From assembly GCA_963422435.1 (NCBI GenBank), contig OY729511.1, forward strand, positions 728,103-792,102: a stretch of 64,000 nt of DNA, written 5' to 3'. This DNA comes from Candidatus Binatia bacterium. GTDB taxonomy: Bacteria; Desulfobacterota; Binatia; Bin18. The notes under the pieces were generated by a model. That model worked only from the letters and a program-made list of their open reading frames with translations, made no database searches and was not told where the DNA came from. This document shows positions 1 through 28,532 of the stretch, one piece after another; position 1 is the stretch's first letter; the number at the start of each line of letters is the position of its first letter. Both the position numbers and the translations under genes were made by a program.

Positions 1-2237
1 ACCGTAAAGCTATCCCCGCCGCGCGGAATGGGACCAACGTCGAGTTGGGCCCGGAGTTCAGCGTTCACCGCATCGCTCAGCATGTGTTTGATGACGATGT
101 GATGATAGGTGGTTTGGCCATAGGTCCAGTTGGCCATGTCCGGGCCAAAGCGGGTGACGAGGGATTGGACGGCGGCCTGAAAACTCTCGCGTATGAACCG
201 GTCCCGTCCGGCGAGCGGGTCAGGACCGTAGCGTGCATCAGGAGCAAGCAGGCTGTTGATGAGCGGGGTGACGACAATACTCGCAAATGATTCCTGCAGA
301 GCGGCCGGGACGTGCCTGTTCCGAAATTGCTCCCACAACTGGCGCTGCCAGGCGGCATAGATCCCGGCGGCAACGGAGTCCTTGTCCAGCCTGAGGTCCC
401 AGGCGTACAGCGTATTGAGCGCCGCCCGGACGAGCGGGTCTGCCGACGCCCAGTCCTTGTCCTGAGCGCGCAGAAACGGCACCAGCAAACGAGCCGGAAT
501 CGAGTATTCATCGCTCTGGAGCTGCATCATCTCGCGGGCCGTCAGGTTTTTACCCGCGGCAAGGACTTCCTCAATCCGGGCAAACCGGTACGGCTCCAGC
601 CAGTAATAACTGATCGGATAGGGGTAGTTGGGCGGCAGGTTCTCCTGGTTTGCGGTGGCGATAAACCCCTCCGAGGGGTTCAGGACGTGCGGCAGCTCGC
701 GAATCGGCAGATAACCGTCCCACTCAAAGCGTCCATCCCCCGGCACGGGCACCAGGCCGTTCCAGTTGGGCCGGAGCGGCACCACGCCGACCGCCTGCCA
801 GCCGATATTGCCCTGCCTGTCCGCCCAGACCATGTTCTCTGACGGAGCGCGGGAATAGGCGCACGCCTCGCGGAACTCCTGCCAGGTCGTGGCCTGGTCC
901 ATCCGCAGGCTGGCCAGATAGGGTACCCCACCGATATCGAGCCAGGCGGCCCGCAGCCCAAAGGCCAGGGGCCGCTCCGGGTCTTCGGCCAGAATGGGAC
1001 CGTGCCGGGTGTATTTCAGTGCGACTTTGGCAGCGTCCTGGCCTTTCACCGGGATCGTCTCGGAGAGAACCCGCATATCTTCCCATTCCCCTTGATACCA
1101 ATACTGATACGGATTGTCCGGGTTGGTCTTATACACATACAGGTCTTCGGAGTCCGTCGGGAAAATCGTCAGCCCCCACGCTCCCTGCTCGTTATGCCCG
1201 ATAGAAACGCCGGGCAGGTGGGGCTCGCCCCCACCAATCACGTTCCAGCCGGGCGCAACCAGATGCACCCAGTAGCGCAGCGACGGCGCGGTAATGGCCC
1301 GGTGCGGGTCGTTGACCATGAGCGGTTTGCGAGAGAGCGTTTTGGTGCCGCTCACCACCCAGTTATTACTGCCCTCGTCTTGTGACACGGGCTTTCCAAT
1401 GAAGGCCGGTGCAACAGCTTGGCCGGCAGACCGAGGAGGTGGGTCAGTGGTTTCCGAGGCGCGATGCTGTGGATCAACGACGTCTTCGGGCGCAAAGGCG
1501 ACCGCTTCACGCGCGGCTTGATAATACTTCAGGGCATCACCGGGAACGGTCGCCACATCGAGCCCTTCGGGGACGGCCAGGTCGGGCGTTCCGGGGTGCA
1601 AATGGAGCATCGTCCGTATCGTCTCGGGTTGCATGGTTTGCAGCGCCTGGGCGATCAGGACCTCGGTTTCCAGGTTCAGAAAAATCCCGCCGAGGCGCGC
1701 CAGCACAATGTCCGGGGTCCAGTCCTGGGGGGTGATACCGAGCAGGTTAAACTCCAGGGACAGCATCTCCGGCTGTTCCTGGGTCTGCCGGATATAGGCG
1801 TTAATACCCTGGACAAAGGCGGTAATGATCTCTTTCCCGTCCGGGTGATAGTACCGGCACTCCTGGTCCAGGTCGCCGCGAAAACGCAGCAGCCGGGCCC
1901 CGATGTCGCGGTCCAGGGCTTTGGGGCCTTGAATCTCGGCCATCGTGCCAGTGACGCGCCGGCGCCAGATCTCAAGCTGAAACAGGCGATCGCGGGCCGC
2001 GTTATACCCCTGGGCAAAAAACAGGTCGTGCTGGTTCTTGGCATAGATATGAGCGATACCCCAGCGGTCGGTCAGGATTTCGACCGACTCGCGGAGCCCG
2101 GAGACGCGCAGTGTTTCCATTCCATCCTCCTGAACGCTTGTCTGAGGCAGGACCGCGGCTCCACCCAGGGGCGGAGAGAGCCAGGGGGCAACACATAAGA
2201 AGAAGAGAATAGATGCCGTTTTTGCACCCGTCGGCAT
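1..2237 (-). CDS. penicillin acylase/amidase family protein (Ntn-hydrolase, S45-like); C-terminus lies beyond window start
   Basis: Reverse-strand translation from ATG at 2235-2237 gives a signal-peptide-like N-terminus (MPTGAKTASILFFLCVAPWLSP), then acylase-like sequence including an SNNW nucleophile-type motif. It runs off the window edge, so it is not in the ORF track as one ORF. Confidence 0.7.
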   Translation of the reverse strand, partial: MPTGAKTASILFFLCVAPWLSPPLGGAAVLPQTSVQEDGMETLRVSGLRESVEILTDRWGIAHIYAKNQHDLFFAQGYNAARDRLFQLEIWRRRVTGTMAEIQGPKALDRDIGARLLRFRGDLDQECRYYHPDGKEIITAFVQGINAYIRQTQEQPEMLSLEFNLLGITPQDWTPDIVLARLGGIFLNLETEVLIAQALQTMQPETIRTMLHLHPGTPDLAVPEGLDVATVPGDALKYYQAAREAVAFAPEDVVDPQHRASETTDPPPRSAGQAVAPAFIGKPVSQDEGSNNWVVSGTKTLSRKPLMVNDPHRAITAPSLRYWVHLVAPGWNVIGGGEPHLPGVSIGHNEQGAWGLTIFPTDSEDLYVYKTNPDNPYQYWYQGEWEDMRVLSETIPVKGQDAAKVALKYTRHGPILAEDPERPLAFGLRAAWLDIGGVPYLASLRMDQATTWQEFREACAYSRAPSENMVWADRQGNIGWQAVGVVPLRPNWNGLVPVPGDGRFEWDGYLPIRELPHVLNPSEGFIATANQENLPPNYPYPISYYWLEPYRFARIEEVLAAGKNLTAREMMQLQSDEYSIPARLLVPFLRAQDKDWASADPLVRAALNTLYAWDLRLDKDSVAAGIYAAWQRQLWEQFRNRHVPAALQESFASIVVTPLINSLLAPDARYGPDPLAGRDRFIRESFQAAVQSLVTRFGPDMANWTYGQTTYHHIVIKHMLSDAVNAELRAQLDVGPIPRGGDSFT

Positions 2238-2264
2238 AGTCGCTCCTGTCGTGCGCAGTCCTGG

Positions 2265-2696
2265 TCACGCCGCATCAACAGGCGGTAGTACGTCCGGCGT
2301 GATCTGATAGCCGTCCGCCAGGGCGTTGGTGCTGTTGAACAACGCCACAATGGCCATCACTTCTCCCAGCGTTTGGGTGTCACCACCAAGCTTGCGCAAG
2401 GCCGCAGTGTGGGAGTTAATACAGTAGGCACAGCCATTGGTGGCCGAAACAGCCAGGGCAATAATCTCGCGCGTCCGAGGGTCAAGGGGCGATTCCCGCC
2501 CGCTGGCTTCGGGGTGCATGAGCGCTTTCAGCCGGGTCCAGATCATCTCCAGATTATCCGGATGACTGGCCAGGGCCCGCCAGAAATTCGGCACCGCCGG
2601 AATACCCTTGGTGGCTTTGATGTCAGCATAGATCTCCGCGACTTTGCCGGTGGCTTCTTCTTCCGCGACCATGCGCACGGTTGCAGTACGGGTCAT
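2265..2696 (-). CDS. carboxymuconolactone decarboxylase / AhpD-like family protein
   Basis: ORF 2265..2747; likely start at MTRTATV (ATG 2694-2696) preceded by a GGGAGGG RBS. CxxH motif (CAYCINSH) typical of the AhpD/CMD fold. Confidence 0.7.
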   Translation of the reverse strand: MTRTATVRMVAEEEATGKVAEIYADIKATKGIPAVPNFWRALASHPDNLEMIWTRLKALMHPEASGRESPLDPRTREIIALAVSATNGCAYCINSHTAALRKLGGDTQTLGEVMAIVALFNSTNALADGYQITPDVLPPVDAA

Positions 2697-2875
2697 AGCA
2701 CTCCCTCCCTTGTGACTGGCGAGACGAGGTCGTTCAACTCGCCTCATTCAGATCGCTACGCTCAGGTTGTCCCAAAAAGAGACAGAAAGAAAGGGCGGAG
2801 GATACGCCGTGTGTAGCGGGAGAGTTGTGGCTTGGTCGGAAATTCCGTACAGCAGTCTCTAAGGAGGCTGTACAT

Positions 2876-3838
2876 ATGGCGATTCTGATTACTGGAGGTA
2901 CTGGGTTTTTGGGCCGGCATTTGACACGACATCTGGTTCGGTCGGGCGAGAATGTCGTTATTCTCGATGCCGTCCCGAACCGACAGGCGGTCGCGGACGT
3001 GGCCGACCAAGTGAAAGTCTTGCAGGGCGATGTCATGGAAGTGACTGCGCTCATAGACGTGATCCAGCGTAATAAAATCGAAGGAGTTATTCACCTCGCC
3101 TACTATCTGGGAACCGGCGGCATCCGCAATCCGCTGCCGTCGATCAACGTGAATTGTATTGGCACCACCAACATCTTTGAGGCCGCCCGGCTGAGCGGCC
3201 TGAAGCGCGTTGTGTATATGAGTTCGGTCGCCGTATTTCCCGAGCGCACGGCCGGCACCGCCCCGGAGCTGCGCGAAGACGACCCGCCGGCTCCATCCAC
3301 CAGCAACCAGGCCGGCCTGTACGGGGCGTGCAAATTATTTAACGAACATACCGCAGACTACTACAACCACGCCTATGGCATGGACTTCATTGCGATCCGA
3401 CCGACCTCGGTGTTTGGCGAGGGACGCGGCCAGCGCCGGGGAGCGGCGGGAGATCATTTTATGGTCGCCCCTGAGCTGGCCCTGCTCGGCAAGCCGGTCG
3501 TCATGCCGCCGGACGAGCAGATTGCCGACTGGCTGTACGTGGCCGACGCCGCGGAGGTCTTTCGCCGGGCGTACCACCTTGAAAACCCGCAATCCCGCGT
3601 GTTCAACATGGCCGGTCCCAGCCGCAAGACGGGCGAGATCACAGCCTATCTGCGCGAGTTGCTGCCCGACGCTGACATCTCGGTTAGTGATAAACCCGTG
3701 GCCATGACTTCGCTAGTCAACACCGACCGCCTGCGGACCGAGCTGAGCTTCACCCCCACGTATACGGTCGAGGACGGCATCCTGGCCTATTTGCACGATG
3801 TGCGGAGGCGCGAAGGCATGCCGCTGGAGCCGCGGTAG
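2876..3838 (+). CDS. NAD-dependent epimerase/dehydratase (extended SDR)
   Basis: AAGGAGG RBS then ATG 2876. N-terminal Rossmann motif ILITGGTGFLGRHL; ~320 aa, typical of the SDR-epimerase family. Confidence 0.8.
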   Translation: MAILITGGTGFLGRHLTRHLVRSGENVVILDAVPNRQAVADVADQVKVLQGDVMEVTALIDVIQRNKIEGVIHLAYYLGTGGIRNPLPSINVNCIGTTNIFEAARLSGLKRVVYMSSVAVFPERTAGTAPELREDDPPAPSTSNQAGLYGACKLFNEHTADYYNHAYGMDFIAIRPTSVFGEGRGQRRGAAGDHFMVAPELALLGKPVVMPPDEQIADWLYVADAAEVFRRAYHLENPQSRVFNMAGPSRKTGEITAYLRELLPDADISVSDKPVAMTSLVNTDRLRTELSFTPTYTVEDGILAYLHDVRRREGMPLEPR

Positions 3839-3930
3839 ATTGCGAAAAGAATAGGAGCCAATCCCCGCTACGCAGTGACCGGCCTCTACAGAAAGAAATA
3901 TCGGCTTTCGGTTGCATTCCGTCGAGTGGC

Positions 3931-4377
3931 TTAGAATGCTGGCGTCCCCGGCGTGGTAGAAATCTTCGTCACCTTCTCTTCGGCGTCGTGGGAGACGGAA
4001 AGCGTAAAGGTTTCACCCGTAAACCCTTCAACCGGGGTACCGATAATCTCCCACGCCCCAAGGGTAAGCACGTCCATGGCGGCATGGCCGATCGCTCGCC
4101 CAGTAGACGGCTGATTCCCGCGTTGCAGATGAAATTCGTCTGTCCGTCCATCTGCGACGGCAAACGTTCTCGCTGGCTGCCCAATATGCAGCAGGACTTC
4201 ATCTCGTGGCTGTCCGATGCGCAACGCCCCCGTGTTTGGATCGGGCCTGCCGGACAGAGCCATGCCGACTGAACACGAGGGCAGGAACAGTAGCAGGATG
4301 CCCCCCATCACGAGCACGGCCAGCGCACCGCTATGGCATCTGAAAGCACAAATATCCTTTATCCAGTCGGGCATATC
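3931..4377 (-). CDS. hypothetical small membrane-anchored protein
   Basis: Only the C-terminal ~149 codons of ORF 3931..4839 look protein-like: MPDWIKDIC... with one hydrophobic helix (LAVLVMGGILLLFL). The upstream part of the ORF is low-complexity and probably non-coding. Confidence 0.35.
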   Translation of the reverse strand, partial: DMPDWIKDICAFRCHSGALAVLVMGGILLLFLPSCSVGMALSGRPDPNTGALRIGQPRDEVLLHIGQPARTFAVADGRTDEFHLQRGNQPSTGRAIGHAAMDVLTLGAWEIIGTPVEGFTGETFTLSVSHDAEEKVTKISTTPGTPAF

Positions 4378-4576
4378 TCTCTCCTGTGTGGCGCTGAGTA
4401 CCCGGCGGGTGCCGGGCCGTGTCCACATCACAACAGGGAGTGGGATGGGGTCCTGCCCATTCACCACGACGTGAACGGCAACGAAGCTGTCAGGTATACG
4501 TGCGGATGTCAACATAGGGCCGTGCCCTGGATTTCGCTCCTTCAATTTGAGACAGTACCCTTCCAGAAGGAGTACT

Positions 4577-5806
4577 ATGAATTCCAGCACGGTCCCAGCC
4601 CGCATTGAGTCCCTGAAGGTGCAGAACTTTCGGGCGCTGCGCAAAGTCGAGTTCAAGAAGCTCGCGCCCCTGACCGTGCTGCTTGGCCCCAATGGTAGTG
4701 GCAAGTCCACGGTCTTTGACGTGTTCGCGTTTCTGGCCGAGTGCTTTGAGTTGGGGTTGCGCCGGGCTTGGGATAAACGCGGGCGAGCCAAGGAACTCAA
4801 GACGCGCGGCGCACAGGGAGCGGTGACCATCGAGATCAAGTATCGGGAACCCGGCTATCCGCTCATCACCTATCATCTGGCCGTTGATGAACGTGACCGC
4901 GCGCCGGTGGTCGTGGAGGAATGGCTGGGTTGGAAGCGGGGGAGTCATGGGCAACCGTTTCGATTCCTAGAATATGCGCACGGCCAGGGACGAGCGGTTA
5001 GTGGCGAGAGGCCGGACCAGCAGGACAAGAGGGTGGATATTCTGCTCAAATCCCCTGACCTGCTGGCAGTCAACGCGCTTGGACAGTTCGCCGGGCATCC
5101 GCGCGTGGTGGCACTCCGCGACTTTGTCACCGGCTGGCATGTATCGTATCTGTCAGCCGACAGCGCGCGCGGGCAGCCCGAGATGGGACCCCAAGAACGG
5201 CTGAGCAAAACGGGCGACAACCTCGCCAACGTCATTCAATACCTGGCTGAACAGCATCCAGAACGGCTGGAGAACGTCTTCACTATCCTGCGCCGACGGG
5301 TACCGCGCATTGAGCGTGTGCTGGCCGAGACCATGCCCGACGGGCGCCTGCTGTTGCAGATCAAGGACGCCCCGTTCAGCCACCCGGTGCTGGCCCGTTT
5401 CGCTTCCGACGGCACGCTGAAGATGCTGGCCTATCTGGTGCTGCTGTACGACCCCGAACCACCGCCCTTCATTGGCATCGAAGAGCCGGAAAACTTCCTG
5501 CACCCACGGCTGCTGGCCGAACTGGCCGAGGAGTGCCGCGCGGCCAGTGAACGCACCCAGTTGCTCGTGACCACCCATTCGCCGTTTTTCCTGAACGCCT
5601 TGCGGCCTCAAGAGGTACGGGTCCTGTGGCGCGACGATCGGGGCTATACACAGTCGCAACACGTGGCTGATTTACCCAAGGTGCGCAATTTCCTGGAGTG
5701 TGGCGGGCTGCTGGGAAACTTATGGATGGAGGGATATTTCAGCGTGGGTGATCCGCTGGTCAATCAAGGCGCGCCGACCGCTCCTCCACAAAGGCCCAAG
5801 CTGTGA
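4577..5806 (+). CDS. AAA_21/AAA_15-type ABC ATPase (OLD / AriA / AbiLi-like)
   Basis: GAAGGAG RBS, ATG 4577. Walker [12 protein letters not shown], Walker B/D-loop [14 protein letters not shown]-loop VTTHSP: an SMC/RecF-like ABC ATPase typical of defence-associated ATPases. Confidence 0.8.
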
Positions 5807-6426
5807 TTGCCAGACATTTGGAATTGCTTGTTGAAGAGCCGTCAATGGAAGCGTTTCTGCGAGAACTCCTGCCGTGTATTTTGCCCGCAGACTGTGGTTT
5901 CGATATCCATACGTTTCAGGGTAAGCCCGACCAGCGAGGCAAGTTACAGAACCGTCTGAGGGGTTACGCGCAGTTGCCCGACGCCTGGCGCATCCTTGTG
6001 GTAGTGGATCGCGATGACGATGACTGCCGGCAGCTCAAGCAGTGGCGAGAAGACGTCGCATCGGGGGCGAATCTGCGCACGAGATCGCAAGCGGTTGGCC
6101 AGTCCTGGCAATTGGTCAACCGTGTGGTCATCGAGGAGTTGGAGGCGTGGTATTTCGGTAACTGGGAGGCTGTACGCAGCGCCTATCCGAGAGTATCGCC
6201 CACCGTTCCGAATCAAAGTCGTTATCGCAATCCCGACTCAGTCCAGGGTGGAACCTGGGAGGCGTTCGAGCGGATACCGAAACGGCGCGGGTATTTCAAG
6301 ACAGGATTACGCAAGATGGAAGCAGCGCGGGCCGTTGCTGCCCACATTGACCCGGCGCGTAACCGTTCACCCAGCTTCTCAAAATTTTACGACGCCGTCG
6401 TCGAAGCGACATCTTATCAGCAGTGA
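5803..6426 (+). CDS. DUF4276-like small Toprim-like protein (partner of upstream ATPase)
   Basis: Start overlaps the upstream stop (ATGA, 4-bp overlap). N-terminal [16 protein letters not shown] and acidic [11 protein letters not shown] resemble the Toprim Glu and DxD motifs and the DUF4276 signature as I recall it. Confidence 0.6.
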
Positions 6427-6467
6427 AACTTGCTCAATAAACGGTGTAACAATTTGAGAGGACGCCT

Positions 6468-7544
6468 ATGGACTTCGGAGTGGGCTTTCAGTCGCATATT
6501 CACAACGGATGGAAACACGCCCTGCTGGCCGAGCAGATGGGGTTTACTCATGCCTGGTTTGTGGACTCACAGTTGATTACCTCGGACGTATATGCCTGCA
6601 TGACCCTGGCCGCCGCGCATACCACAACGATTCGACTCGGCACCGGCGTCACTATTGTTGGGACGCGGATTCCCCCCGTTATTGCGCATTCGATTGCCAC
6701 CATCAATCAGCTTGCGCCCGGTCGGGTGATTCTCGGTCTGGGCACCGGCCATACGGCCTGGCGGACCATGGACATGCCACCGGTTTCGCTCGCAGCGTTC
6801 CGGCACACGGTCGAGGTCTGTCAGGGCCTGCTGCGGGGCGAGACTGTCGCCTATCACGAGCGCGGACGGCAGAGCCGGATTCGGTTCATGGATGTTGAGC
6901 ACGGCTATATTAACGTGCGCGAGCGCATCCCTATCTATCTGGCGGCCTCGCACCCCAAGGCTCAGGCCCTGGCCGGTGAGCTGGGCGACGGCCTGTTGAC
7001 CCTGAGCCTGCTCGCGCCCGAGTCGCTCACCCGCACTCTGGCGGCAGTCGCACAGGGCTGGGAGGGACGGGACGGCGGGAAACCGGCTGACTTCGGTGTG
7101 GTCACGCTCGGCATCTCCTGCGTGCTGCAACCCGGCGAGGCAGTGAACAGTCCGCGCGTGCTGTCACGGGTCGGTCCGCGCATTGCGGTGGCCCTGCACT
7201 ATGCCTATGAAGTCGCCAGACAGGGCAAAACGGTGCCGCCTTTTTTACAACCCTTCCTGACTCCGGAGTACCAGCGCTATCTGGATGAGCGCTGGGAAGA
7301 CGTACACGCCACGCACTCGCGCTTTCTGCATCCGGGCGAAGAAAAATTCATTACCCCCGAGGCTATTCGGGCCATGAGCCTGACCGGCTCGCGCGCTGAC
7401 ATCCTCGAACGTCTCGCTCAGCTTGAAGCCGCCGGACTCACCCAGATGGTGGTCTCACCCCCGTGGGGTCTGGTGGAAGAAAGCATCGTGGAGTTCGCCC
7501 GAGAGATTATTGGGCCATACACACAGCTCACCACTCGTCACTGA
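6468..7544 (+). CDS. LLM-class (luciferase-like) flavin/F420-dependent oxidoreductase
   Basis: 358 aa. N-terminal FGVGFQSH... and a TIM-barrel LLM-like sequence with GLGTGH motifs. Confidence 0.75.
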   Translation: MDFGVGFQSHIHNGWKHALLAEQMGFTHAWFVDSQLITSDVYACMTLAAAHTTTIRLGTGVTIVGTRIPPVIAHSIATINQLAPGRVILGLGTGHTAWRTMDMPPVSLAAFRHTVEVCQGLLRGETVAYHERGRQSRIRFMDVEHGYINVRERIPIYLAASHPKAQALAGELGDGLLTLSLLAPESLTRTLAAVAQGWEGRDGGKPADFGVVTLGISCVLQPGEAVNSPRVLSRVGPRIAVALHYAYEVARQGKTVPPFLQPFLTPEYQRYLDERWEDVHATHSRFLHPGEEKFITPEAIRAMSLTGSRADILERLAQLEAAGLTQMVVSPPWGLVEESIVEFAREIIGPYTQLTTRH

Positions 7545-7624
7545 CCCCTCGCCACTCCCCAAGGGGTTTGGAATCAGCGGCTGAAACCGCTAGGCTGAGA
7601 ACCATTCTCCTGGAAGGACAAAAT

Positions 7625-8473
7625 ATGGATACGACGCAAGACGAAGCAGTACGCTATGAACAGGTCGGACATATCGGCTGGCTGAGACTCAATCGGGCGG
7701 ACAAGCTGAACGCCATGACGCCCCAGATGTGGCAAGCCTTACGGGAACTCGGCCACACGCTTTCCACCGAAGAACACGCCCGTGAGAACCAGCTACGGGC
7801 GCTCGTCGTGATGGGCGAAGGCCGCGCGTTCTCGACCGGGATCGATACCTCGGCCTTTGGTGGCGTGGTCTTTAACGGACATGAACGTGATCCTGTGCCC
7901 GAGGTGGTGGCCGACGATGATCCCATGGTGTCCATTATCCAGGGCTTTCAGGAAGCCTTCACCTGGCTTGAAGAAGCCCCCTATCCGACCATTGCCGCGG
8001 TCCGGGGCTATGCCTTGGGCGCGGGCATGCAGATGGCGCTGGCCTGCGATATCCGGGTGGTCGCCCGCGGCAGCCGGCTGGGCTTGCTGGAACATCGCTA
8101 CGGCCTCATCCCCGACCTGGGCGGCACCCAACGCCTGCCCCGACTGGTCGGTACGGGTAAGGCCAAGGAGCTCATCTTCACCGCGCAGCAGATTGAGGCC
8201 GAAGAAGCCTACCGGATCGGTCTGGCCGAACAACTCGTTGACGACGAGGCATTGGAGGCGACCGTGACGGACCTGGCAGACCAGTTGGCCAGTCAGCCGC
8301 CGCTGGCCGTGCGCTATGCCAAGCAGGCGATTGACGCCAGCCAGTATCTTTCCGTCCGAGACGGACTCCTGCTGGAAGCCAAGAGCCAGGCGGTCTGCGT
8401 TCGCTCCCAGGACGCCAAGGAAGCGGTGCGGGCGTTTATGGAAAAACGGATGCCCCGCTACTCGGGGCAATAG
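7625..8473 (+). CDS. enoyl-CoA hydratase/isomerase (crotonase family)
   Basis: AGGAAGGA RBS then ATG 7625 (MDTTQDEAVRYEQVGHIGWLRLNRADKLNAM). Crotonase motifs (GEGRAFSTGID, oxyanion-hole region). Confidence 0.85.
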   Translation: MDTTQDEAVRYEQVGHIGWLRLNRADKLNAMTPQMWQALRELGHTLSTEEHARENQLRALVVMGEGRAFSTGIDTSAFGGVVFNGHERDPVPEVVADDDPMVSIIQGFQEAFTWLEEAPYPTIAAVRGYALGAGMQMALACDIRVVARGSRLGLLEHRYGLIPDLGGTQRLPRLVGTGKAKELIFTAQQIEAEEAYRIGLAEQLVDDEALEATVTDLADQLASQPPLAVRYAKQAIDASQYLSVRDGLLLEAKSQAVCVRSQDAKEAVRAFMEKRMPRYSGQ

Positions 8474-8503
8474 AAAGAGGCGGGACAGTAAAGGAGGCGG
8501 ACA

Positions 8504-9325
8504 ATGACAGACCACGGCTATGCCCGACCGGACATGCTGGCAGAGACCCAATGGCTCGCGGCGCATCTCCAGGATGACAACCTGCGGCTCGTCGATTGTG
8601 ATAATCGCGAAGCCTACCGCCGTGCCCATATTCCGGGTGCGATTCCCGTTCGCGGCCATCATTATTTCAAGGAAAAAGAAGGTGCGCCGCATATCATGGG
8701 CCCGGACCAGTTTGCTCAGACCATGGGAGAGATGGGCATTGGGGATGACACGCTGGTGGTTGCCTATGATGGCTTCAGCGGGCTGTACGCGGCCCGGCTC
8801 TGGTGGGCGCTGCACTATTACGGCCATACCAATGTCAGAGTGCTGAACGGGGGCTGGGACGCCTGGCTGGCCGAAGGGCGGCCAGTGACCAACGCCTCAT
8901 CCCGTCCGGCCCAGGCGACCTTTACGGCCCAGGCGAATGCAGACCTGATCGCCCGCTGGGAGCGGGTCCAGGCGGCCATTGCCGCGGAGACCGTGCTGCT
9001 CGATGTGCGCTCAGATGCGGAGTGGACCGGCGAAAACAACCGGGGCACCAAGCGGGGTGGGCGGATTCCCGGCGCGGTCCATCTCGAATGGCTCAACTAT
9101 GTGGACCCCCAGACAAAAAAGTTCAAGCCCGCGGACGAACTTCGCCCCATGTTTGAGCAGGCCGGGGTCAAGCCCGAGGGTGAGGTCGTCACCTATTGAC
9201 AGGGTGGCATCCGTGCGGCGCACGGATTGTTCACCCTTCGCTTGCTCGGTTTTGACAAGGTACGGAATTACGATGCCTCCTGGGCCGAATGGGGCAATCG
9301 CGAGGACCTCCCGCTGGAAAAATAG
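8504..9325 (+). CDS. two-domain rhodanese (thiosulfate/3-mercaptopyruvate sulfurtransferase family) with in-frame TGA (9197-9199) at the catalytic Cys position; candidate selenoprotein
   Basis: ORF 8504..9199 ends VVTY-TGA. The same frame continues [41 protein letters not shown] to TAG 9323-9325. This reproduces the TST/MST active-site loop C(R/Q)xGx(R/T) and the C-terminal YDGSWSEWG-like motif, with TGA where Cys is expected. Confidence 0.6.
9203..9235 (+). promoter_or_regulatory. SECIS-like stem-loop immediately downstream of the in-frame UGA
   Basis: GGTG-GC-ATCCGTG-CGGCG-CACGGAT-TGTT-CACC: 7-bp perfect upper stem with a G-rich 5-nt loop, an internal loop, and a 4-bp lower stem, starting 4 nt after UGA. 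Confidence 0.45.
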
Positions 9326-9331
9326 ACTCTG

Positions 9332-9916
9332 GTGACGCTCCCTCCTCATATGGCTGGATACAGACAATCGCTGGGGCTTCTGGCCGTTCTGCTCGCCTGC
9401 TTTCTTTTCCCCAACCGGGTCTGTCTCGCCCAGCCCGCGGTTGAGCCCGAACCCCACGGCAACCTGATCATCCAGACTCCGGGAGAACGGGCTCAGCCGG
9501 TCTTGGTCGATACCAAGGGTGCCGTCCCGCCCCAGAGCCAGTGGTGGCGCGATAGTGAGCTTTTGCGGGGCGGACTCCGGGAATTGACGCTACGCGAGCG
9601 CGGGCGGGGTGAACTCCTGGTCCATCCCCGGCTGGCCGGAAAAGATGTCAGTCCGCTGGCCCAGGTCATCATTTACGCCGCGGGGACGCAAAAAGAGGTT
9701 GCTCGCAGCGAGTCCGGCCAGGAACATCGCTTTGTCCTGGATACCGGCAGCTATGATGTGTTTGTGGCCAATCCAACGGGACGGGGAAAGCCCTTCGTGC
9801 TGGAACGCACGGAACTCCCGGATGAAAAAACTGTCGAAAAGGATGTCCACCTGGATGAACCGGCCGACCAGCCTGCGGCGCAGCCCCCAATCCATTCGGA
9901 ACCGCAGACCCGCTAA
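9332..9916 (+). CDS. secreted hypothetical protein
   Basis: N-terminal hydrophobic signal-like segment (LGLLAVLLACFLFP..AQP); no recognisable domain. Confidence 0.45.
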   Translation: MTLPPHMAGYRQSLGLLAVLLACFLFPNRVCLAQPAVEPEPHGNLIIQTPGERAQPVLVDTKGAVPPQSQWWRDSELLRGGLRELTLRERGRGELLVHPRLAGKDVSPLAQVIIYAAGTQKEVARSESGQEHRFVLDTGSYDVFVANPTGRGKPFVLERTELPDEKTVEKDVHLDEPADQPAAQPPIHSEPQTR

Positions 9917-9931
9917 GCCGGGGGAAATGAG

Positions 9932-10186
9932 TTGAAGTCCGTACACACCGACCAGTACCGCGAGTTCCGGGCCCTGATGGTTGCGGCGAGGAAAGCCGCC
10001 GGCCTGACTCAGACGGAACTCGCCAAGCAGTTGGGCAAATCGCAGTCCTACGTTTCAAAATATGAGCGCGGTGAGCGACGCCTGGATGTCATAGAGTTCC
10101 TGACGCTCGCCGACCTGCTGCATTGCGACCCCCACGCCTGTATCACCAGACTGAGCGCCCTGTCCCTCAAACGCGCGGTGTCATGA
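9932..10186 (+). CDS. XRE-family helix-turn-helix transcriptional regulator (TTG start)
   Basis: [26 protein letters not shown] is a classic HTH_3/XRE motif; 84 aa. Confidence 0.65.
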
Positions 10187-10431
10187 AAACGACCGGCGAT
10201 GTCATTCAATCGGCCAGTGTCCACCTGACTGCACTCACCGGCCATATTTTCGATCTCCTCACCATTGCCAAACCAATCTCTCCAGAAGCCGCTGTCAACT
10301 TGGCGAAAGTTTGGAAACAAATTTCGCCAAGATCAATAGAATCAACCATGCCGAGATCACCGCATTCAAGCACAAGGTGCTCAACGCTGAGCACCACGGA
10401 AGAACAATACGAGAGTGGGCACGGCTACTAG
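10183..10431 (+). CDS. hypothetical small protein (overlaps HTH gene stop by ATGA)
   Basis: ATG 10183 overlaps TGA of the HTH gene. No recognisable domain; competes with ORF 10311..10517 in another frame; possibly one frameshifted gene. Confidence 0.25.
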
Positions 10432-10517
10432 GGCGGGGGAACGAAACCAGGCTTCAAAAAGCACTCGGAGATAACCTGGACATCAGAGAAGCGGATTCTG
10501 AAGACAGCGTTCAATAA
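10311..10517 (+). CDS. hypothetical small protein (alternative frame, TTG start)
   Basis: 68 aa charged sequence with host-like GC3 in its first half; no domain recognised. Confidence 0.25.
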   Translation: METNFAKINRINHAEITAFKHKVLNAEHHGRTIREWARLLGRGNETRLQKALGDNLDIREADSEDSVQ

Positions 10518-11577
10518 CGCGCTTCTGCCCGAAATAGTAGTACGTCGGATCAATCTCGCTGCCAAAGGCAGGTCGCTTAAGGCCATGCGCGGCAATACAG
10601 GTCGTAAATAAACCGCCAAAAGGCTCCCACACAACATCACCAACCTCGGTTGAGGCTTCAATGATTCGTGAAATCAAGTCGAGAGGCTTCTGGTTCAGAT
10701 GCAGGGCCTTGCCGTTTAATCCAGGTGTTGTATACCGCTCCGCACCATGTAAAGCAGGGCGCTCCCATACATTTGTCACACCGTGCGGACAGCTAAATTT
10801 AGAACGGTATCCTTTCCAATCCTGCGCTGTAGCAGGTCTCTTCCCATCTAACGAAAAATACGGTCGGCCTTCCGGTTTGCCATACTTGTTCGCATAGCTT
10901 TGCATTTTCTCGAACATTTCCGGCGGGGGGTAGTACCACAAATGGCTTTGGTCAAGATATTTACGGACAGCAACGTCTTTGACACCACAAGCCTCGTTCG
11001 CCCGCTTCAGGGGTAAGCCGGTTCGTTTCCATTCCCGATACAGCCACTCCTTCAGCACCAGCCCATTCACACGGGGCTCAAAAACGTACTGAATGCAGAC
11101 TTCCGTCACAACGGGAAAGCGTCGTATTTTCTTTGTATTCACATTACCCGCGATATGGCCTTTCCCCTTATTCCACACATTGGCGTTTACATAGCGCCAC
11201 CCGTACTTTTCCAGGGTCGGGTGAACAGCCGCCCAACCGATTTCGGAATTCCAAAACCACAGGGTCGTGTCAGGTTTCGCTTTTCGCGCCCAGGCCGCAA
11301 TGTGCGGCTCATACCACTCTGGCAAACCCAAATGATCGGACGTGTCTCCTTCAAAGCCAAGGACACCATAGCCGCCGTCTGACACAATGGCGGTTGGCGA
11401 CTCCCACGAGTCGGACTGCTCAAGACTGTCGCCTAGCGATATGTGGACGAGTTCATCCGACCACACTGGCGACTCTGGTGTGAAATCCTCTTTCAACGCC
11501 CGCCCTCGCCCTACCGTGCTCGTCGGCGTTGTTTTTTTCTTCCTTTTGGGCGGCAAGGGGATTGTATCAGTTTCCAT
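10483..11577 (-). CDS. beta-class DNA methyltransferase (N6-adenine/N4-cytosine family), orphan, on lower-GC DNA
   Basis: C-terminal motif I region LHLNQKPLDLISRIIEASTEVGDVVWEPFGGLFTTCIAA matches the HPTQKP...DPFxGSGTT class. The N-terminal region has SDGGYG where (D/S)PPY is expected. N-terminal basic tract PKRKKKTT. Local GC is clearly below flanks. Confidence 0.7.
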   Translation of the reverse strand: METDTIPLPPKRKKKTTPTSTVGRGRALKEDFTPESPVWSDELVHISLGDSLEQSDSWESPTAIVSDGGYGVLGFEGDTSDHLGLPEWYEPHIAAWARKAKPDTTLWFWNSEIGWAAVHPTLEKYGWRYVNANVWNKGKGHIAGNVNTKKIRRFPVVTEVCIQYVFEPRVNGLVLKEWLYREWKRTGLPLKRANEACGVKDVAVRKYLDQSHLWYYPPPEMFEKMQSYANKYGKPEGRPYFSLDGKRPATAQDWKGYRSKFSCPHGVTNVWERPALHGAERYTTPGLNGKALHLNQKPLDLISRIIEASTEVGDVVWEPFGGLFTTCIAAHGLKRPAFGSEIDPTYYYFGQKRVIERCLQNPLL

Positions 11578-11673
11578 ATCTTTATTTGAACCTGTTTTAG
11601 GTTGTTATCAATGCCCATCTTTTCCCGGCCCTTTTGAGAGACATACCGTAGGCGTAGTTTGGAGCACGTGTTC

Positions 11674-19466: not shown

Positions 19467-22400
19467 GTGCCCATATGTCATGTCGAAGAGCCAAAAATGA
19501 GAGCCGCCCTGGAGCCACAGATGGAAAAACACTCCCTCATACTGGACAATCGCTTACGCACAGTCGCCGATTATCTTTGCGCGCATCTGCCGGACGCCGA
19601 AGTCTTTCGCCTGGTTTCGGCGTATTTCAGCGTTTACGGCTACGAGGCACTGCAACACGAACTGAGCGGCATCAAAGACGTGCGGTTTCTCTTTGGCGAC
19701 CCCGCGTCAGCGGGCGAATTGGACCCTGGGGGGAAAGCGCCCAAATCCTTTGACCTGAGTGAAAAGGGATTGTTGCCCAACCACGCCTTGCAGCAGAAAT
19801 ACCTCGCACAGCAATGCGCCGCATGGGTACAAAGCCGGCGGGTCAAAATCCGGTCCATCAGCCAAGCCAATTTTCTGCACGGCAAGATGTATCTCACCGA
19901 ATCCGCGGACGCCGTTGGCTCAGTAGTGGTGGGGAGTTCCAACTTCACCCGGCGCGGGCTGGGCTGTGGCGCGGGCGCGAATCTGGAGATCAATCTGGCG
20001 ACTAGCGATAGGGAATCCTACGCTGAGTTACAAAAGTGGTTTGATGCGCTTTGGGCAGACAAGGAGTTGACCAGGGATGTCAAGCAAGCCGTCCTGGACG
20101 CGCTGAATCGCATAGGCCGAGACCACGCGCCTGAACTCGTCTATTACAAAACCCTGTACGCGCTGTTCCGGGATGACATCGAAGCCAGAAGGGACGGCGA
20201 AAGACAACTGGCGGATGCACACCTGTACGACACCGCAATCTGGAACGCGCTGTACGACTTCCAAAAAGACGGTGCCAAAAGCGCCATTGCCCGCCTGTTG
20301 CGGCACAACGGCTGCATCTTGGCCGACAGCGTCGGGCTGGGGAAAACCTATACGGCGTTGGCGGTCATCAGGTTCTTTGAACTGAGAAATGAACGGGTAC
20401 TGGTCTTATGTCCCAAAAAACTGCGCGACAATTGGGCACTCTATCCGGATTACACCGCAAATACGAACAACCCTTTTGACAAGGATCGCTTCGGTTACAC
20501 GCTGTTGTCACACACCGATTTGTCCCGCGACCAAGGCAAAGCCGGGGATGTTGATCTGGCCCAGTTCAACTGGCGCAATTTTGACTTGGTCGTCATTGAC
20601 GAATCGCATAACTTTCGCAATGCCAGCGTAAGCCGTCGGGACGAAGCAGGCAGAATCATCCGCCTCAGCCGCTACGAGCGACTCCTCGAAGAAGTCATCA
20701 GACAAGGGGCCAAAACAAAGGTACTGATGCTTTCGGCCACACCGGTCAACACCTCGCTCATAGACCTGCGCAATCAGGTCTATCTGATGACCGAAAAGCG
20801 TGAGGACGTTTTCCGGGACAGTTTGGGCATCGGCCACATCGGCGCTCTACTCGGGCAGGCGCAAAAGGCGTTTCAGAAGTGGGAAGAGGACGGCCAAAAA
20901 GACAAGACGGCGCTGCTGGAAAAATTGGGTGCCGATTTTTTTCGTTTACTCGGGGGTGTTTCCATTTCCCGCTCGCGGCGGCAGATCAAAAAATTCTACG
21001 CCGAGGAAATGAGCCGTATCGGCGAGTTCCCAACCCGCCAAAAACCGCAAAATTATTATCCGCCAACCGATTTGCAAGGCGTTTTATCCTACACGGATTT
21101 GTCCGAGCAGATAGAGCAATTCGCCCTGTCCATCTACCGGCCCTCCACCTACGTTGCCAGCGAACAGGCAAAGCAGCGCTTGGCCAAAGAAAAGCAAGAG
21201 CAACACTTCAATCAGCTAGACCGCGAACGCTTTTTGATCGGTATGATGCGGGTGAACTTTCTGAAACGGCTGGAGAGCTCGGCCCACTCGCTCACGGAAA
21301 CGCTCAGTCGCGCTATTGGCAAAATAGACGCCCTGCTGAAAAAGATAGAACGGTACGAACAGCAACAGACCCTACAGGACGCCCAAGCCGACATCCTGCC
21401 GGACGACGATGAAGACGACGAGGACTTTCTGATCAATCGGGCGCGGAACCCGTATCACCTCCAGGAATTGGATCTGCCGCGTTGGAAAACGGACTTGCTG
21501 AAAGATAGGGAGACCCTGACAGGAGCGTGGAAAAAGGTTGCAGCCATTGCGCCCGAGCGAGACGGCAAGCTACAGGAGCTTCGGAAGCATATCCGTGAAA
21601 AGACGGAGAACCCGACGACCGACCAAGACGGCAATCCCAATCGCAAGCTGCTGGTATTCACCACCTTCAAGGATACCGCCCGATACCTGTACACACACCT
21701 GTCGGATGTCGCCACGGAATTAGGCCTGAGCATGGTGATGGTCGCCGGGGATACAACGCAAACTACCTTTGGCGACAACAACTTTAACGCAATTCTGACC
21801 AACTTCGCACCGCGGGCACGCGGACGCACCGAGGGCACGAGCGGCGAAATCGATGTGCTGATTGCCACCGACTGCATTTCGGAGGGGCAGAATCTTCAGG
21901 ACTGCGACACGGTCTTGAACTACGACATCCATTGGAATCCGGTGCGTCTCATTCAGCGCTTCGGGCGGGTTGACCGCATCGGCAGCCGTCACAAGTCGAT
22001 ACGGATGCTCAACTACTGGCCGACCAAAGACATGGAGGTGTATTTGCGCCTGCAAAGTCGCGTGGAGGCCCGCATGGCCTTGGCGGACGCGGCGGCCAGC
22101 GGCAACGATGACCCGTTGAACGAGTCCACCTTTGAGCAGGCCCAGATGGAACTGAATTTCCGCGACCAGCAATTGCAACAACTGCGCCAAGAGGTGCTGG
22201 ACTTGGACGATTTGTCCGACGGCGTGGTCATGAGCGATTTTACCTTGGATTACTTCTTTGCCCAACTGCTGCGCTATCTGGAGAAAAACAAGGCGGAATT
22301 GGAAGCGACCCCTAACGGCGCATACGCGGTCACACAAGGCGAGGACAATACTATAAGACCGGGGGTGCTGTTTTTTCTGCGTCAGCGCAACGCGAGTGCG

Positions 22401-22799
22401 GACAAACAAGAAAAAATCGCCAGCCCAATTCATCCGTATTATGCGGTGTATATCCGCAACAGCGGCGACATTCGCTATAGTTGCGCCAACGCCCGACAGG
22501 TGTTGGAGGTATTTGAAGCGTCGGCAATTGGCAAGACCAAACCGCTGCAAAGGCTGTGCGACCAGTTTGACCGCGAAATTCAGAACGGCACTGACATGAG
22601 CCATTATGATAAACTGTTGGACGCAGTGATTACCCACATCAGCAGGGCAAACACCACAACCCAAATAACACATCTGGGGATTGGCGGTCAGCGCGACATC
22701 AAACTGCCCGTGCAATCCGCCAGTCCGAGCAACGGCGATTTCGAGTTGGTCACGTGGCTCGTTGTGCTTGAACCACGGGCTGACCCCAGGGCAAAATAA
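19467..22799 (+). CDS. PLD(HKD)-family nuclease domain fused to SNF2-family helicase
   Basis: N-terminal HKD-like motif FLHGKMYLTE....GSSNFT. SNF2 motifs: I ILADSVGLGKTYTA, II LVVIDESHNFRN, III LMLSATPVNT, V/VI VLIATDCISEGQNLQD...QRFGRVDRIGS. GTG start at 19467; alternative ATG at 19497. Confidence 0.85.
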   Translation: MPICHVEEPKMRAALEPQMEKHSLILDNRLRTVADYLCAHLPDAEVFRLVSAYFSVYGYEALQHELSGIKDVRFLFGDPASAGELDPGGKAPKSFDLSEKGLLPNHALQQKYLAQQCAAWVQSRRVKIRSISQANFLHGKMYLTESADAVGSVVVGSSNFTRRGLGCGAGANLEINLATSDRESYAELQKWFDALWADKELTRDVKQAVLDALNRIGRDHAPELVYYKTLYALFRDDIEARRDGERQLADAHLYDTAIWNALYDFQKDGAKSAIARLLRHNGCILADSVGLGKTYTALAVIRFFELRNERVLVLCPKKLRDNWALYPDYTANTNNPFDKDRFGYTLLSHTDLSRDQGKAGDVDLAQFNWRNFDLVVIDESHNFRNASVSRRDEAGRIIRLSRYERLLEEVIRQGAKTKVLMLSATPVNTSLIDLRNQVYLMTEKREDVFRDSLGIGHIGALLGQAQKAFQKWEEDGQKDKTALLEKLGADFFRLLGGVSISRSRRQIKKFYAEEMSRIGEFPTRQKPQNYYPPTDLQGVLSYTDLSEQIEQFALSIYRPSTYVASEQAKQRLAKEKQEQHFNQLDRERFLIGMMRVNFLKRLESSAHSLTETLSRAIGKIDALLKKIERYEQQQTLQDAQADILPDDDEDDEDFLINRARNPYHLQELDLPRWKTDLLKDRETLTGAWKKVAAIAPERDGKLQELRKHIREKTENPTTDQDGNPNRKLLVFTTFKDTARYLYTHLSDVATELGLSMVMVAGDTTQTTFGDNNFNAILTNFAPRARGRTEGTSGEIDVLIATDCISEGQNLQDCDTVLNYDIHWNPVRLIQRFGRVDRIGSRHKSIRMLNYWPTKDMEVYLRLQSRVEARMALADAAASGNDDPLNESTFEQAQMELNFRDQQLQQLRQEVLDLDDLSDGVVMSDFTLDYFFAQLLRYLEKNKAELEATPNGAYAVTQGEDNTIRPGVLFFLRQRNASADKQEKIASPIHPYYAVYIRNSGDIRYSCANARQVLEVFEASAIGKTKPLQRLCDQFDREIQNGTDMSHYDKLLDAVITHISRANTTTQITHLGIGGQRDIKLPVQSASPSNGDFELVTWLVVLEPRADPRAK

Positions 22800-22813
22800 G
22801 CGGGGTCATCACC

Positions 22814-23095
22814 ATGCTGTATTTTACAGACGAAGAACTGCTGCAAATCATCGCAGCCGGCGAATCCGACCGCGTCGAGTTCAAGGAGTCTTTATCCGGC
22901 GACGCCGCCACCAGAATCAGGGAAGCCATCTGCGCCTTTGCCAACGATTTGGCCGGTCACGACAAACCCGGTTTTGTGTTCGTAGGCGTGAAGGACGACC
23001 GAACAATGGGTGATCTCGTTGCCGCCACCGACGCCCGCAGGGCTTTGGCGACAAAGATAGTGCACAAAATCGGGCTTGGCCCGGGTCTCGAATAA
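22814..23095 (+). pseudogene. AlbA_2 (Schlafen-like DNA-binding) domain fragment
   Basis: ESDRVEFKESL...ICAFANDLAGHDKPGFVFVGVKDD matches the AlbA_2 N-terminal domain. Only 93 aa, and it overlaps the start of the downstream methyltransferase. Confidence 0.45.
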
Positions 23096-23117
23096 CCCGC
23101 CTCACAAAAGAAGCAAC

Positions 23118-26100: not shown

Positions 26101-26588
26101 AGCGCTATCGGGTGGAATGGGCGAGACTGTGGGTGATTGATTCACACAACGGTTACGGCGATGTGCCGCCAATCAATGTTGATGATTATATCGCCATCAA
26201 GCGGCATCTGGATCAATTCTATCCTCAGTTGAAAAAGCGGCAAGATAAGGGAATAACGCCGTACAATCTGCGCCATTGTGCTTACCACGAAGAGTTTCTG
26301 CGCGATAAGCTCGTTTGGATGGATCTGTCGCCACAAGGCCGGTTCGCCTACTCCAACGAGGAAGTGTATTGCAACAATAAGGCGTTCCTGATGATAGGTT
26401 TTCCGTTGAAATATCTCTGCGCGGTGTTGAACAGCACCATTGTCACTTGGCTGGTCAATAAAACTGCTCGGACAACCGGAGTCGGATTAACACAATGGGA
26501 AAAATTCACCGTCGAAGCTATCCCTATCCCCAACATCCCTGCCATAGAGCAACACCCGTTCATCCGCTTGATTGACCGTATCCTGTAA
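23118..26588 (+). CDS. MmeI / PglX-like large N6-adenine DNA methyltransferase (Type IIL/IIG-like)
   Basis: Motif X TGSYYTPRPVVDYMV, motif I LKILDPAVGSGAFP, motif IV VVLGNPPYIQ. FINGGLFD as in MmeI. N-terminal D-x12-ELK arrangement (FDTGHPQSFFFFAVELK) resembles the MmeI PD-ExK. ORF ends at TAA 26586-26588, though the conserved C-terminal tail continues in frame. Confidence 0.85.
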   Translation: MDRAKGHRRTDTLVEAVKAGLATMPTDDVLTTAQNLLGVLGYRSSRTLHGQSGNVDDFIGQFPAPKSNTATEQAFRENVQSVQFVFQLTSDEIASAKPPTPGLETASFDTGHPQSFFFFAVELKEANYARSKYAEFTRELNKRLIAPTVVLFTTQQGRLTLAFVHRRQHKHDPSRDVLGSVSLVRDINPTQPHRAHLDILAELSLEHLLSWMSDHNKPHDFDGLLAAWLNALNTEALNKRFYTELFDWFEWTVGEATFPTQEQKVLPPEEHSIRLITRLLFVWFIKEKRLIAEDLFNETKIADLLKNYDRDTGDSYYRAVLQNLFFATLNTEIDKRGFSKEKDSTHRNFSLYRYKSEISDPEKLLALFARTPFINGGLFDCLDSEEGIRDGGYRIDCFSDNERHYTKLSLPNRLFFGEHGLIPLFNRYKFTVEENTPVEQEVALDPELLGKVFENLLAAYNPETRQTARKQTGSYYTPRPVVDYMVDEALLASLAQQCRPTDGAATFWQERLRYLLNYEDAFSDADELFDKDEAAGIVRTIAGLKILDPAVGSGAFPMGVLHKLTLALRRIDPDNTRWATLQKERAREKADAAFETKDRHERDAELLEISETFEKYAGDFGRKLYLIQNSIFGVDIQPIACQIAKLRFFISLAIEQEANNNPNDNYGIKPLPNLETRFIAADTLLKLSGERMLTSEKAQILEHQLLENRERHFHATTRQKKLAYKKEDKRLRGELAQALESLGFPTDDANKIAHWDPYDQNATAAWFDAEYMFGVTGGFDVVLGNPPYIQLQKNGGTLGRKYAGQDFQTFVRSGDIYQLFYERAGQLLSDQGHLCFITSNSWLKAKYGEKLRRYFTDKHTPMKLLEMGKDIFENAIVDNNILLVRAGKSDTVGSAVDVERLPDQTFPPAEKLWGKLRLRDSEPWMALSAVERGIMDKMQAIGTPLKEWDIAINYGIKTGYNAAFIVDKKTKNALVAEDPRSEELLKPILRGRDIKRYRVEWARLWVIDSHNGYGDVPPINVDDYIAIKRHLDQFYPQLKKRQDKGITPYNLRHCAYHEEFLRDKLVWMDLSPQGRFAYSNEEVYCNNKAFLMIGFPLKYLCAVLNSTIVTWLVNKTARTTGVGLTQWEKFTVEAIPIPNIPAIEQHPFIRLIDRIL

Positions 26589-26755: not shown

Positions 26756-27145
26756 CTACTTGCCCTCGTTGCTACCCGAGGTTTTGTACAAGTCATCAAA
26801 ATGCCACAACTTTTCTATTAAATACTTAAGCAAAACACCCAAGGCACTACTAATAATATCCAGTGTAAAACCCAGTCCGGTGCTTGCCTGAAAACTTCCT
26901 GATGCTATTAGCCAAATTGCTACCGCAATTAGAACTATAATTATCAAGCAAAGGAAAGCCGATGCGGCTCTTGAAAACCAGGTTTGCCAAGCGAGATGCT
27001 TGAACCGGGAAATCTCTACGGTATGGCTATGTTCCTGCTGTCGGCTTTCTAATCCTTGCTCATGCTCTTGCTTTGCAGTCCCCCTTGGAGCTTCCTGTTT
27101 CTGCTCATCCAGTCGCGGGTCTTTAATGGGGGGTCTGTCATTCAT
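26756..27145 (-). CDS. small 2-TM membrane protein (candidate toxin partner of Panacea gene)
   Basis: 129 aa. Charged N-terminus then hydrophobic helices FLCLIIIVLIAVAIWLIA and GFTLDIISSALGVLL. Its start codon abuts the stop of the upstream Panacea gene. Confidence 0.5.
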   Translation of the reverse strand: MNDRPPIKDPRLDEQKQEAPRGTAKQEHEQGLESRQQEHSHTVEISRFKHLAWQTWFSRAASAFLCLIIIVLIAVAIWLIASGSFQASTGLGFTLDIISSALGVLLKYLIEKLWHFDDLYKTSGSNEGK

Positions 27146-28518: not shown

Positions 28519-28532
28519 ATGGAGGCGCCAGC

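Follow-up and report, generated by a model that had tools for sequence, protein, structure and literature searches.

Within a 64,000-nucleotide stretch of a Candidatus Binatia bacterium genome (contig OY729511.1, positions 728,103 to 792,102 of the forward strand; the whole stretch is called the window here), two overlapping genes at positions 4577 to 6426 encode an ABC-type ATPase (protein A) and a predicted nuclease with a Toprim fold (protein B). The pair is probably an autonomous two-gene module of the OLD-like kind, directed against phages or mobile elements and belonging to the type listed in PADLOC as HEC-01. It is an intact copy of this widespread, catalogued candidate type, for which no mechanism has been worked out in the literature searched. 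The domain identities, the intact catalytic motifs, the obligatory pairing of the two genes, their accessory status, and their frequent embedding in type I restriction-modification (R-M) operons were established here. An original prediction, made from the letters of the window alone, had proposed a candidate defense module, and this proposal is supported by the family assignments, the fold of B, the invariant residues, pairing in 80 of 80 loci, and an insertion/deletion (indel) difference between close relatives. New in this work are a natural empty site, a recurrent misannotation of the start codon of B, and the finding that, across phyla, conservation is higher in the ATPase than in the nuclease.

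Family identity, catalytic motifs, and gene starts

The genes and motifs of the pair are as follows (aa, amino acids).

4577..5806, + strand: HEC-01A, ABC-type (AAA_21) ATPase of 409 aa, with ATG start at 4577 and TGA stop at 5804-5806
5803..6426, + strand: HEC-01B, predicted stand-alone DUF4276 Toprim-fold nuclease of 207 aa, with GTG start and TGA stop at 6424-6426
4566..4572, + strand: Shine-Dalgarno-like GAAGGAG 5' of the ATG at 4577, as read from the sequence
5803..5806, + strand: GTGA start/stop overlap, with the GTG of B at 5803 and the TGA of A at 5804-5806
4685..4711, + strand: Walker A (P-loop) GPNGSGKST, residues 37-45 of A; G37 to K43 invariant
5405..5428, + strand: ABC signature-like SDGTLKML, residues 277-284 of A; S277 to K282 invariant
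5468..5506, + strand: Walker B (FIGIEE) and D-loop (PENFLHP), residues 298-310 of A; G300, E302, E303, P304, E305, N306, L308, H309, and P310 invariant
5567..5584, + strand: H-loop VTTHSP, residues 331-336 of A; T332 to P336 invariant
5833..5850, + strand: Toprim acidic cluster E11-E12-P-S-M-E16 of B, at the end of strand 1 and start of helix 1; E11, E12, S14, and E16 invariant
6007..6015, + strand: Toprim DxD motif D69-R70-D71 of B, at the end of strand 3; D69 and D71 invariant
6133..6159, + strand: EELEAWYFG, residues 111-119 of B, invariant; E112 and E114 are candidate second-metal ligands
6313..6315, + strand: K171 of B, invariant; by spacing only, the candidate counterpart of the catalytic lysine K562 of the Burkholderia pseudomallei OLD nuclease

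In profile searches, the family matches of both proteins lay far above chance level. Against Pfam, A matched AAA_21 (9e-31 over residues 32-340) and, more weakly, AAA_15, SMC_N, and AAA_23, and the sole family found for B was DUF4276 (3e-31). Against PADLOC-DB, A matched HEC-01A (PDLC04182; 2e-158, residues 8-392 on profile positions 2-404 of 406), and B matched HEC-01B (PDLC04202; 4e-78, residues 5-202 on profile positions 2-200 of 204). The pairing of an AAA_21 ATPase with a DUF4276 protein, as originally predicted, was thus recovered in both collections. Weaker PADLOC matches of A were to AriA (2e-30), AbiLi (1e-24), mad3 (9e-24), NsnB (8e-19), and PtuA (about 1e-17), while the PADLOC matches of B were confined to HEC-01 profiles. 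In NCBIfam, the best model for A was MAD3, at 116.5 bits against a curated cutoff of 420, and the scan of B gave no match. The labels MAD3, PtuA, RecF, and SMC were rejected for A, as their scores fell far under the curated cutoffs or they covered the P-loop only. In PADLOC-DB itself, profile PDLC04144 ("HEC-01B") matched the ATPase (1.6e-118) and profile PDLC04143 ("HEC-01A") matched the DUF4276 protein (7e-26); in this couple, the letters A and B appear to be swapped relative to the other profiles.

The structure of B was modeled with AlphaFold2 from 59 homologues (pLDDT 87.5, pTM 0.86). The model is a confident one. It has a Toprim fold, and its nearest solved structures are OLD nucleases and AriB. 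Strand 1 spans residues 5-10, helix 1 spans residues 13-26, and strand 3 spans residues 62-69, which places E11 and E12 right after strand 1 and D69-x-D71 at the end of strand 3, the canonical Toprim positions. Together with the invariant glutamate and DxD motif, this agrees with the earlier description of the small protein as Toprim-like. A search of the PDB sequences with the B family profile returned nothing meaningful (best E value, 0.4), and by that criterion the family has no solved structure; neither the PDB sequence search nor the literature searched held any structure or biochemistry for DUF4276. The model of A was of moderate quality (pLDDT 66.5) and was used solely to name its nearest solved relatives, which are Thermus OLD, PtuA (of Septu and of a retron), and GajA, all of them defense ABC ATPases.

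Invariance was judged over 77 orthologues for the motifs of A and over 59 database homologues plus 80 genomic orthologues for B. Walker A, the signature-like motif, Walker B with its catalytic glutamate, the D-loop, and the H-loop, which mark membership in the ABC ATPases, are all present in A, and A reads as holding a complete nucleotide-hydrolysis site. The features of the Toprim superfamily, namely an alpha/beta fold, a conserved glutamate after strand 1, and a DxD motif after strand 3, are likewise present in B. Residues LLVEEPS of B are positions 8-14, and VVVDRDDDD is positions 66-74. The invariant residues of B include E11, E12, S14, E16, D69, D71, C75, E112, E114, W116, F118, G119, and K171. 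All motifs quoted in the original prediction were found in the two sequences, with two adjustments to their interpretation. The 10-residue run that had been given as the D-loop of A is not the D-loop alone: the 13 residues at positions 298-310 comprise Walker B (IGIEE within them) plus the D-loop. The acidic segment VVVDRDDDD had been offered as the DxD site, and this holds for the invariant acids of D69-R70-D71 but not for the DDD run that follows, which is not invariant. At residue 120, the B protein of the window has N where at least 90% of the homologues have D.

The two-metal site of the B. pseudomallei OLD nuclease consists of E400, E404, D455, D457, T506, E508, and K562 (PMC6755086). 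The spacings of E12, E16, D69, D71, E112, E114, and K171 in B match those of this site. From spacing and invariance only, we infer that these residues of B are equivalent to the metal site of the OLD enzyme, with E112 and E114 as candidate counterparts of T506 and E508.

The predicted 409-aa reading frame of A was found at 4577 to 5806, and the predicted 207-aa frame of B was found at 5803 to 6426, both on the + strand. An alternative TTG start at 4547 would extend A to 419 aa. The ATG at 4577 is preferred because it is preceded by GAAGGAG at 4566-4572 and because an independent gene call on the identical public contig likewise gives a protein of 409 aa. The two open reading frames (ORFs) lie in different frames, and the overlap, originally reported as ATGA, reads GTGA. 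Such an overlap is consistent with translational coupling of A and B. The homologues of B of about 205 to 208 aa begin with a methionine and an 11-residue segment that are in register with the GTG at 5803, and this shared beginning supports the GTG as the start of B. In contrast, the identical public protein (P0001) was called from Met15 as a 193-aa product, and strand 1 and the Toprim glutamate are lost from it. Automated calling of DUF4276 genes often used the same internal Met15 (the omitted part is 5803-5844 in the window), and many database representatives align from profile position 15. A start that is late by 14 codons deletes the catalytic glutamate of the Toprim gene, which matters to anyone cloning from database records.

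Distribution, gene context, and accessory status

Relatives of B are numerous, with more than 5,000 in a set of 5.8 billion proteins and 1,893 representative clusters in a library at 50% identity, 329 of them at E values of 1e-30 or lower. The best 150 representatives of the family are all 123 to 342 aa long, too short for a fusion of ATPase and Toprim domains. A genome scan with one genome per species gave 266 relatives, of which the best 80 were examined. These 80 loci span Binatia, Latescibacterota, Alpha-, Beta-, and Gammaproteobacteria, Chloroflexota, Acidobacteriota, Gemmatimonadota, Spirochaetia, and other groups, and include an archaeal carrier, Methanosarcina sp. DH2. Every one of the 80 has an orthologue of A immediately upstream of B, in the same orientation. 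The two genes share 4 nucleotides (nt) in 35 loci and a single nt in 13, and 0 to 6 nt separate them in 29, so that 77 of the 80 pairs overlap or lie within 6 nt of each other. One outcome that would have undermined the original prediction was an ATPase acting as a housekeeping ABC component with other neighbors in related genomes; its pairing with the Toprim gene at every locus rules this out.

Pairwise identity across pairs of loci averaged 73% for A and 61% for B, and A was the more conserved of the two in 96% of the pairs. The A protein of the window shares 76% identity with its counterpart in Methanosarcina sp. DH2 and 79% with one from Burkholderia. The identity to the archaeal protein is unusually high for a defense gene that has spread across domains. 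Outside the window, three ATPase homologues of 86 to 88% identity (P0124, P0127, and P0128) carry about 185 additional residues at the N terminus, for a total of 596 aa. P0124 and P0127, the two sequences that were read, have this extension in conserved form. It has no Pfam match, and neither the window nor any of the loci retrieved contains it. We considered these proteins as A-B fusions and rejected this, as the extra part is an N-terminal extension without a Pfam domain.

Apart from lineage-specific syntenic groups, the pair has unrelated flanks in different phyla. Genes of type I R-M systems, confirmed with Pfam, recur beside it. HsdS is encoded immediately upstream in 15 of the 80 loci and HsdR immediately downstream in 15, and at least 7 loci have HsdM at a greater distance upstream. 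In plasmid pMtWR-220 of Meiothermus taiwanensis (L084, 47824-59681), the gene order is hsdM, DUF262, hsdS, DUF4433 (DarT-like), macro domain (DarG-like), AAA ATPase, DUF4276, and hsdR. This type I R-M operon thus carries three modules between hsdM and hsdR, namely the DUF262 protein, the DarT/DarG-like pair, and the ATPase-DUF4276 pair, and the arrangement is a compact defense operon. In all, nine plasmid records hold a relative.

In the window, the pair is flanked downstream by a gene for a luciferase-like oxidoreductase and upstream by a small ORF and an epimerase gene. Comparison with close relatives delimited the following elements.

3839..6456, no strand: accessory segment of 2,618 bp that carries the pair, delimited by blastn; 47 bp stand in its place in contig L082
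3931..4374, - strand: 147-aa ORF within the accessory segment, with a lipoprotein-like signal; variable cargo, outside the conserved pair

The closest relatives of the window are two Candidatus Binatia metagenome-assembled genomes, L002 and L003. The DNA identity to L003 is 90.4% over window positions 1-3831 and 88.8% over 4594-9500; these similar values over flank and pair indicate that the pair diverged in step with its flanks. The insert of L003 consists of A and B alone. The 147-aa ORF, which has no Pfam or PADLOC match, is absent from both L002 and L003, where A and B are present. In two contigs from metagenomes, L082 and L083, the epimerase and luciferase-like oxidoreductase genes are likewise present, with proteins 84 to 95% identical to those of the window, but A and B are missing. 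At this empty site, the two metabolic genes stand 58 nt apart in L082 and about 30 nt apart in L083. By blastn, window positions 1-3838 correspond to 4129-7942 of L082 and positions 6457-9496 to 7990-11029, at about 89 to 90% identity, so L082 is as near to the window as L003 is. The module is therefore accessory, present in some relatives and absent from others at one fixed site, and this polymorphism bears out the small islet between metabolic genes that had been predicted. At the indel borders, 3839 and 6456, a search for terminal direct or inverted repeats gave short, chance-level matches only. The window has a single tRNA gene, about 30 kb away, and no integrase was found among the scanned ORFs that flank the pair. 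A scan of 3700-6600 for promoters and terminators gave no promoter-like site and one terminator-like match at background level.

Other loci of the window also resemble defense genes. A second, larger defense locus at 19467-26585 (+ strand), about 13 kb from the pair, encodes a 1110-aa protein with PLD/HKD and SNF2 helicase domains (PADLOC C3a139, 5e-112; DrmD-like, 3e-34; HmaA, 7e-27), followed by a 1170-aa type IIG restriction-methyltransferase (PDLC03601, 1.5e-139; Pfam Eco57I and TaqI_C). Two overlapping small genes at 28111-28967 (+ strand) match PDC-M50A (1.5e-38) and a ThsB-like TIR protein and PDC-M50B (2e-55 and 5e-46, respectively). Two small ORFs of no known kind lie at 26759-27562 (- strand), and over the stretch 26759-28967 the GC content at third codon positions is 0.42 to 0.61, compared with about 0.7 in most other ORFs. 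Finally, a 1.75-kb block at 9926-11670 holds a gene for an XRE-type helix-turn-helix protein (9932-10186) and one for an N6/N4 DNA methyltransferase (10483-11577, - strand; MTase_II, 8e-21). The GC content of this block is about 0.50 to 0.54, compared with about 0.60 in most of its surroundings, and no restriction enzyme was identified beside it. It is absent from the syntenic L002, L003, and L082 and is thus a second lineage-specific insertion.

Proposed mechanism and alternative explanations

In the most likely mechanism, drawn by analogy with PARIS, OLD, Gabija, and Septu, an oligomer of A would bind B, a predicted metal-dependent nuclease, and keep its activity off. A cue from the infection, which might be an anti-restriction protein of the phage or a foreign nucleic-acid structure, would switch the ATPase, and the Toprim nuclease would then be released or activated and would cut nucleic acid. 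The substrate might be DNA, which OLD and GajA cut, or tRNA, which AriB cuts. The infection would be halted, perhaps with the loss of the cell. These relatives are the basis on which complex formation, trigger, substrate, and the choice between abortive and direct action are inferred. Because prrC and rloAB-type genes sit in the kind of position that the pair often holds between hsdS and hsdR, sensing of anti-restriction factors is a reasonable hypothesis for the trigger.

Several observations weigh against an active, autonomous defense module. Of the two proteins, the putative effector, B, is less conserved than the putative sensor, A, the opposite of a simple expectation of a fast-evolving sensor and a conserved effector. 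The B protein of the window lacks a tryptophan between Q57 and L58 (YAQ-LPD rather than YAQWLPD) that is present in at least 90% of the homologues. A scan of the IMG/VR viral contigs, made with the B alignment and two peptide patterns only, found no relative. PARIS is often carried by phages or satellites. For the pair, the empty IMG/VR scan and a tblastn search of GenBank phages, which gave one weak partial match, provide no support for such carriage. The phage tests of HEC-01 in the literature searched are contradictory. The HEC-01 representative of Payne et al. was not protective in Escherichia coli against the BASEL collection and classic coliphages (10.1101/2024.01.29.577857). In contrast, a HEC-01 picked at random in a cold-seep study gave E. 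coli B protection from one or more of the phages T4, T5, and T7, but that active system is a different representative, of which the AAA_21 domain alone was described (PMC12881386).

We also considered, as a tentative and rather doubtful idea, that this unusually conserved HEC-01 clade works differently from PARIS, OLD, and Gabija, for example, as a guard that senses R-M inhibition or another conserved cue. The ATPase would then be the constrained part, and the substrate of the DUF4276 nuclease would be new for Toprim defense effectors. This idea touches on an ATPase that is so similar between the window and Methanosarcina and that outranks its effector in conservation in nearly all comparisons.

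The remaining explanations are less likely than an autonomous module. The strongest of them, although unlikely, is that the pair serves a methylation-based system (type I R-M or MADS-like) as an accessory effector or guard and would function solely alongside a methyltransferase or restriction partner, for example, by sensing when restriction is inhibited, like PrrC in the prr locus. The placement of the pair between hsdS and hsdR in about 15 of the 80 loci would fit this explanation, as would the discovery of HEC-01 inside Hma systems and the presence in the window of a type IIG restriction-methyltransferase and an additional methyltransferase. The related Mad3 and Mad4 proteins work within the eight-gene MADS operon, in which deletion of mad3 or mad4 lowers resistance and deletion of mad5 is lethal unless mad2 or mad3 is deleted too (10.1101/2023.03.30.534895). 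However, no R-M gene adjoins the pair in the window or at most other loci, and A scores far under the NCBIfam MAD3 cutoff. The insert of L003 is just A and B; with the pair alone as the indel unit, it moves and persists on its own.

It is considerably less probable that the pair is a selfish addiction module of the toxin-antitoxin kind, with B as a Toprim toxin and A as its antidote, kept by postsegregational killing. The Pfam title of AAA_21 ("putative AbiEii toxin, Type IV TA system"), the tight coupling of A and B, and a patchy distribution with horizontal transfer and occurrence on plasmids are in line with addiction. However, a nucleotide identity of about 89% for pair and flanks alike within Binatia indicates stable chromosomal inheritance, the plasmid records are only nine, and the embedding in R-M operons points to defense. 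Addiction and abortive infection are, moreover, mutually compatible functions. A housekeeping DNA repair pair, like the ABC/SMC-like ATPase RecF with the Toprim protein RecR, or like SbcCD, is hardly credible: the formal resemblance to RecF-RecR and the weak matches of A to RecF, RecN, Rad50, and SMC are outweighed by the restriction of these matches to about the first 60 residues around the P-loop, by the absence of the pair from the same site in closely related genomes, by a scatter over phyla at 60 to 90% identity that indicates horizontal transfer, and by the full nuclease-type acidic site of B, whose structure is nearest to OLD nucleases.

Comparison with known systems

The original prediction had likened the pair to PARIS, AbiL, and RloA/RloB. 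Its split-OLD-like character was upheld, but B has no DUF4435, RloB, AriB, or AbiLii match, and the pair falls instead in the HEC-01 type of PADLOC. In PARIS, AriB is a DUF4435 protein, whereas B is a DUF4276 protein without any AriB or DUF4435 match at E values up to 1. The AriB chain in structure 8v46 has 305 residues, compared with the 207 of B. The AriA profile does match A (2e-30), about 130 orders of magnitude more weakly than HEC-01A does. The DUF4276-associated ATPases were placed within the same AAA15/21 defense tree in the PARIS paper (PMC11464382). AbiLi matches A weakly, and B lacks a counterpart of AbiLii. The type I R-M-embedded modules RloA/RloB, AbiLi/AbiLii, and PrrC occupy the same hsdS-[x]-hsdR slot that the pair holds in about one-fifth of loci, but no hsd genes adjoin the pair in the window. 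Menshen consists of three genes, NsnA-NsnB-NsnC; A has the weak NsnB match, but neither NsnA nor NsnC is adjacent. A 2025 analysis of Menshen put DUF4276 in the Toprim superfamily, with the homologue Mad4 in MADS (PMC12065111).

The OLD proteins of class 1 (P2 Old and Thermus OLD) and class 2 (B. pseudomallei OLD and GajA of Gabija) combine an ATPase head with a Toprim nuclease and provide the closest solved structures to A and B. However, both domains are in one chain in these proteins, whereas the pair consists of two genes, and the UvrD-like helicase partner of class 2 OLD and Gabija does not adjoin the pair. The Mad3 and Mad4 proteins of MADS have the same domain combination, an AAA_21-type ATPase with a DUF4276 protein. 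A is nevertheless under the MAD3 equivalog cutoff (116.5 versus 420 bits), the mandatory MAD6, MAD7, and MAD8 were not detected among the neighboring ORFs scanned in the window, and the flanks are metabolic.

HEC-01 (Hma-embedded candidate 01) was defined by Payne et al. as an ABC ATPase with a TOPRIM protein embedded in Hma systems, and their alignment to B. pseudomallei OLD showed the metal site to be conserved (10.1101/2024.01.29.577857). It is reported to be among the most abundant candidate defense types in environmental genomes (PMC12881386), and no biochemical or structural study of it was found in the literature searched. In contrast to the Hma-embedded systems, the pair in the window is solitary between metabolic genes. 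Both of its proteins match the HEC-01 profiles end to end, and the metal site is kept as Payne et al. describe it. All of the sequence-level features of the type, namely the A profile, the B profile, and adjacent, co-oriented genes, are present. The locus is a clean, minimal, and intact example of HEC-01, in which the catalytic residues are clearly defined and for which close relatives offer a natural comparison of occupied and empty sites.

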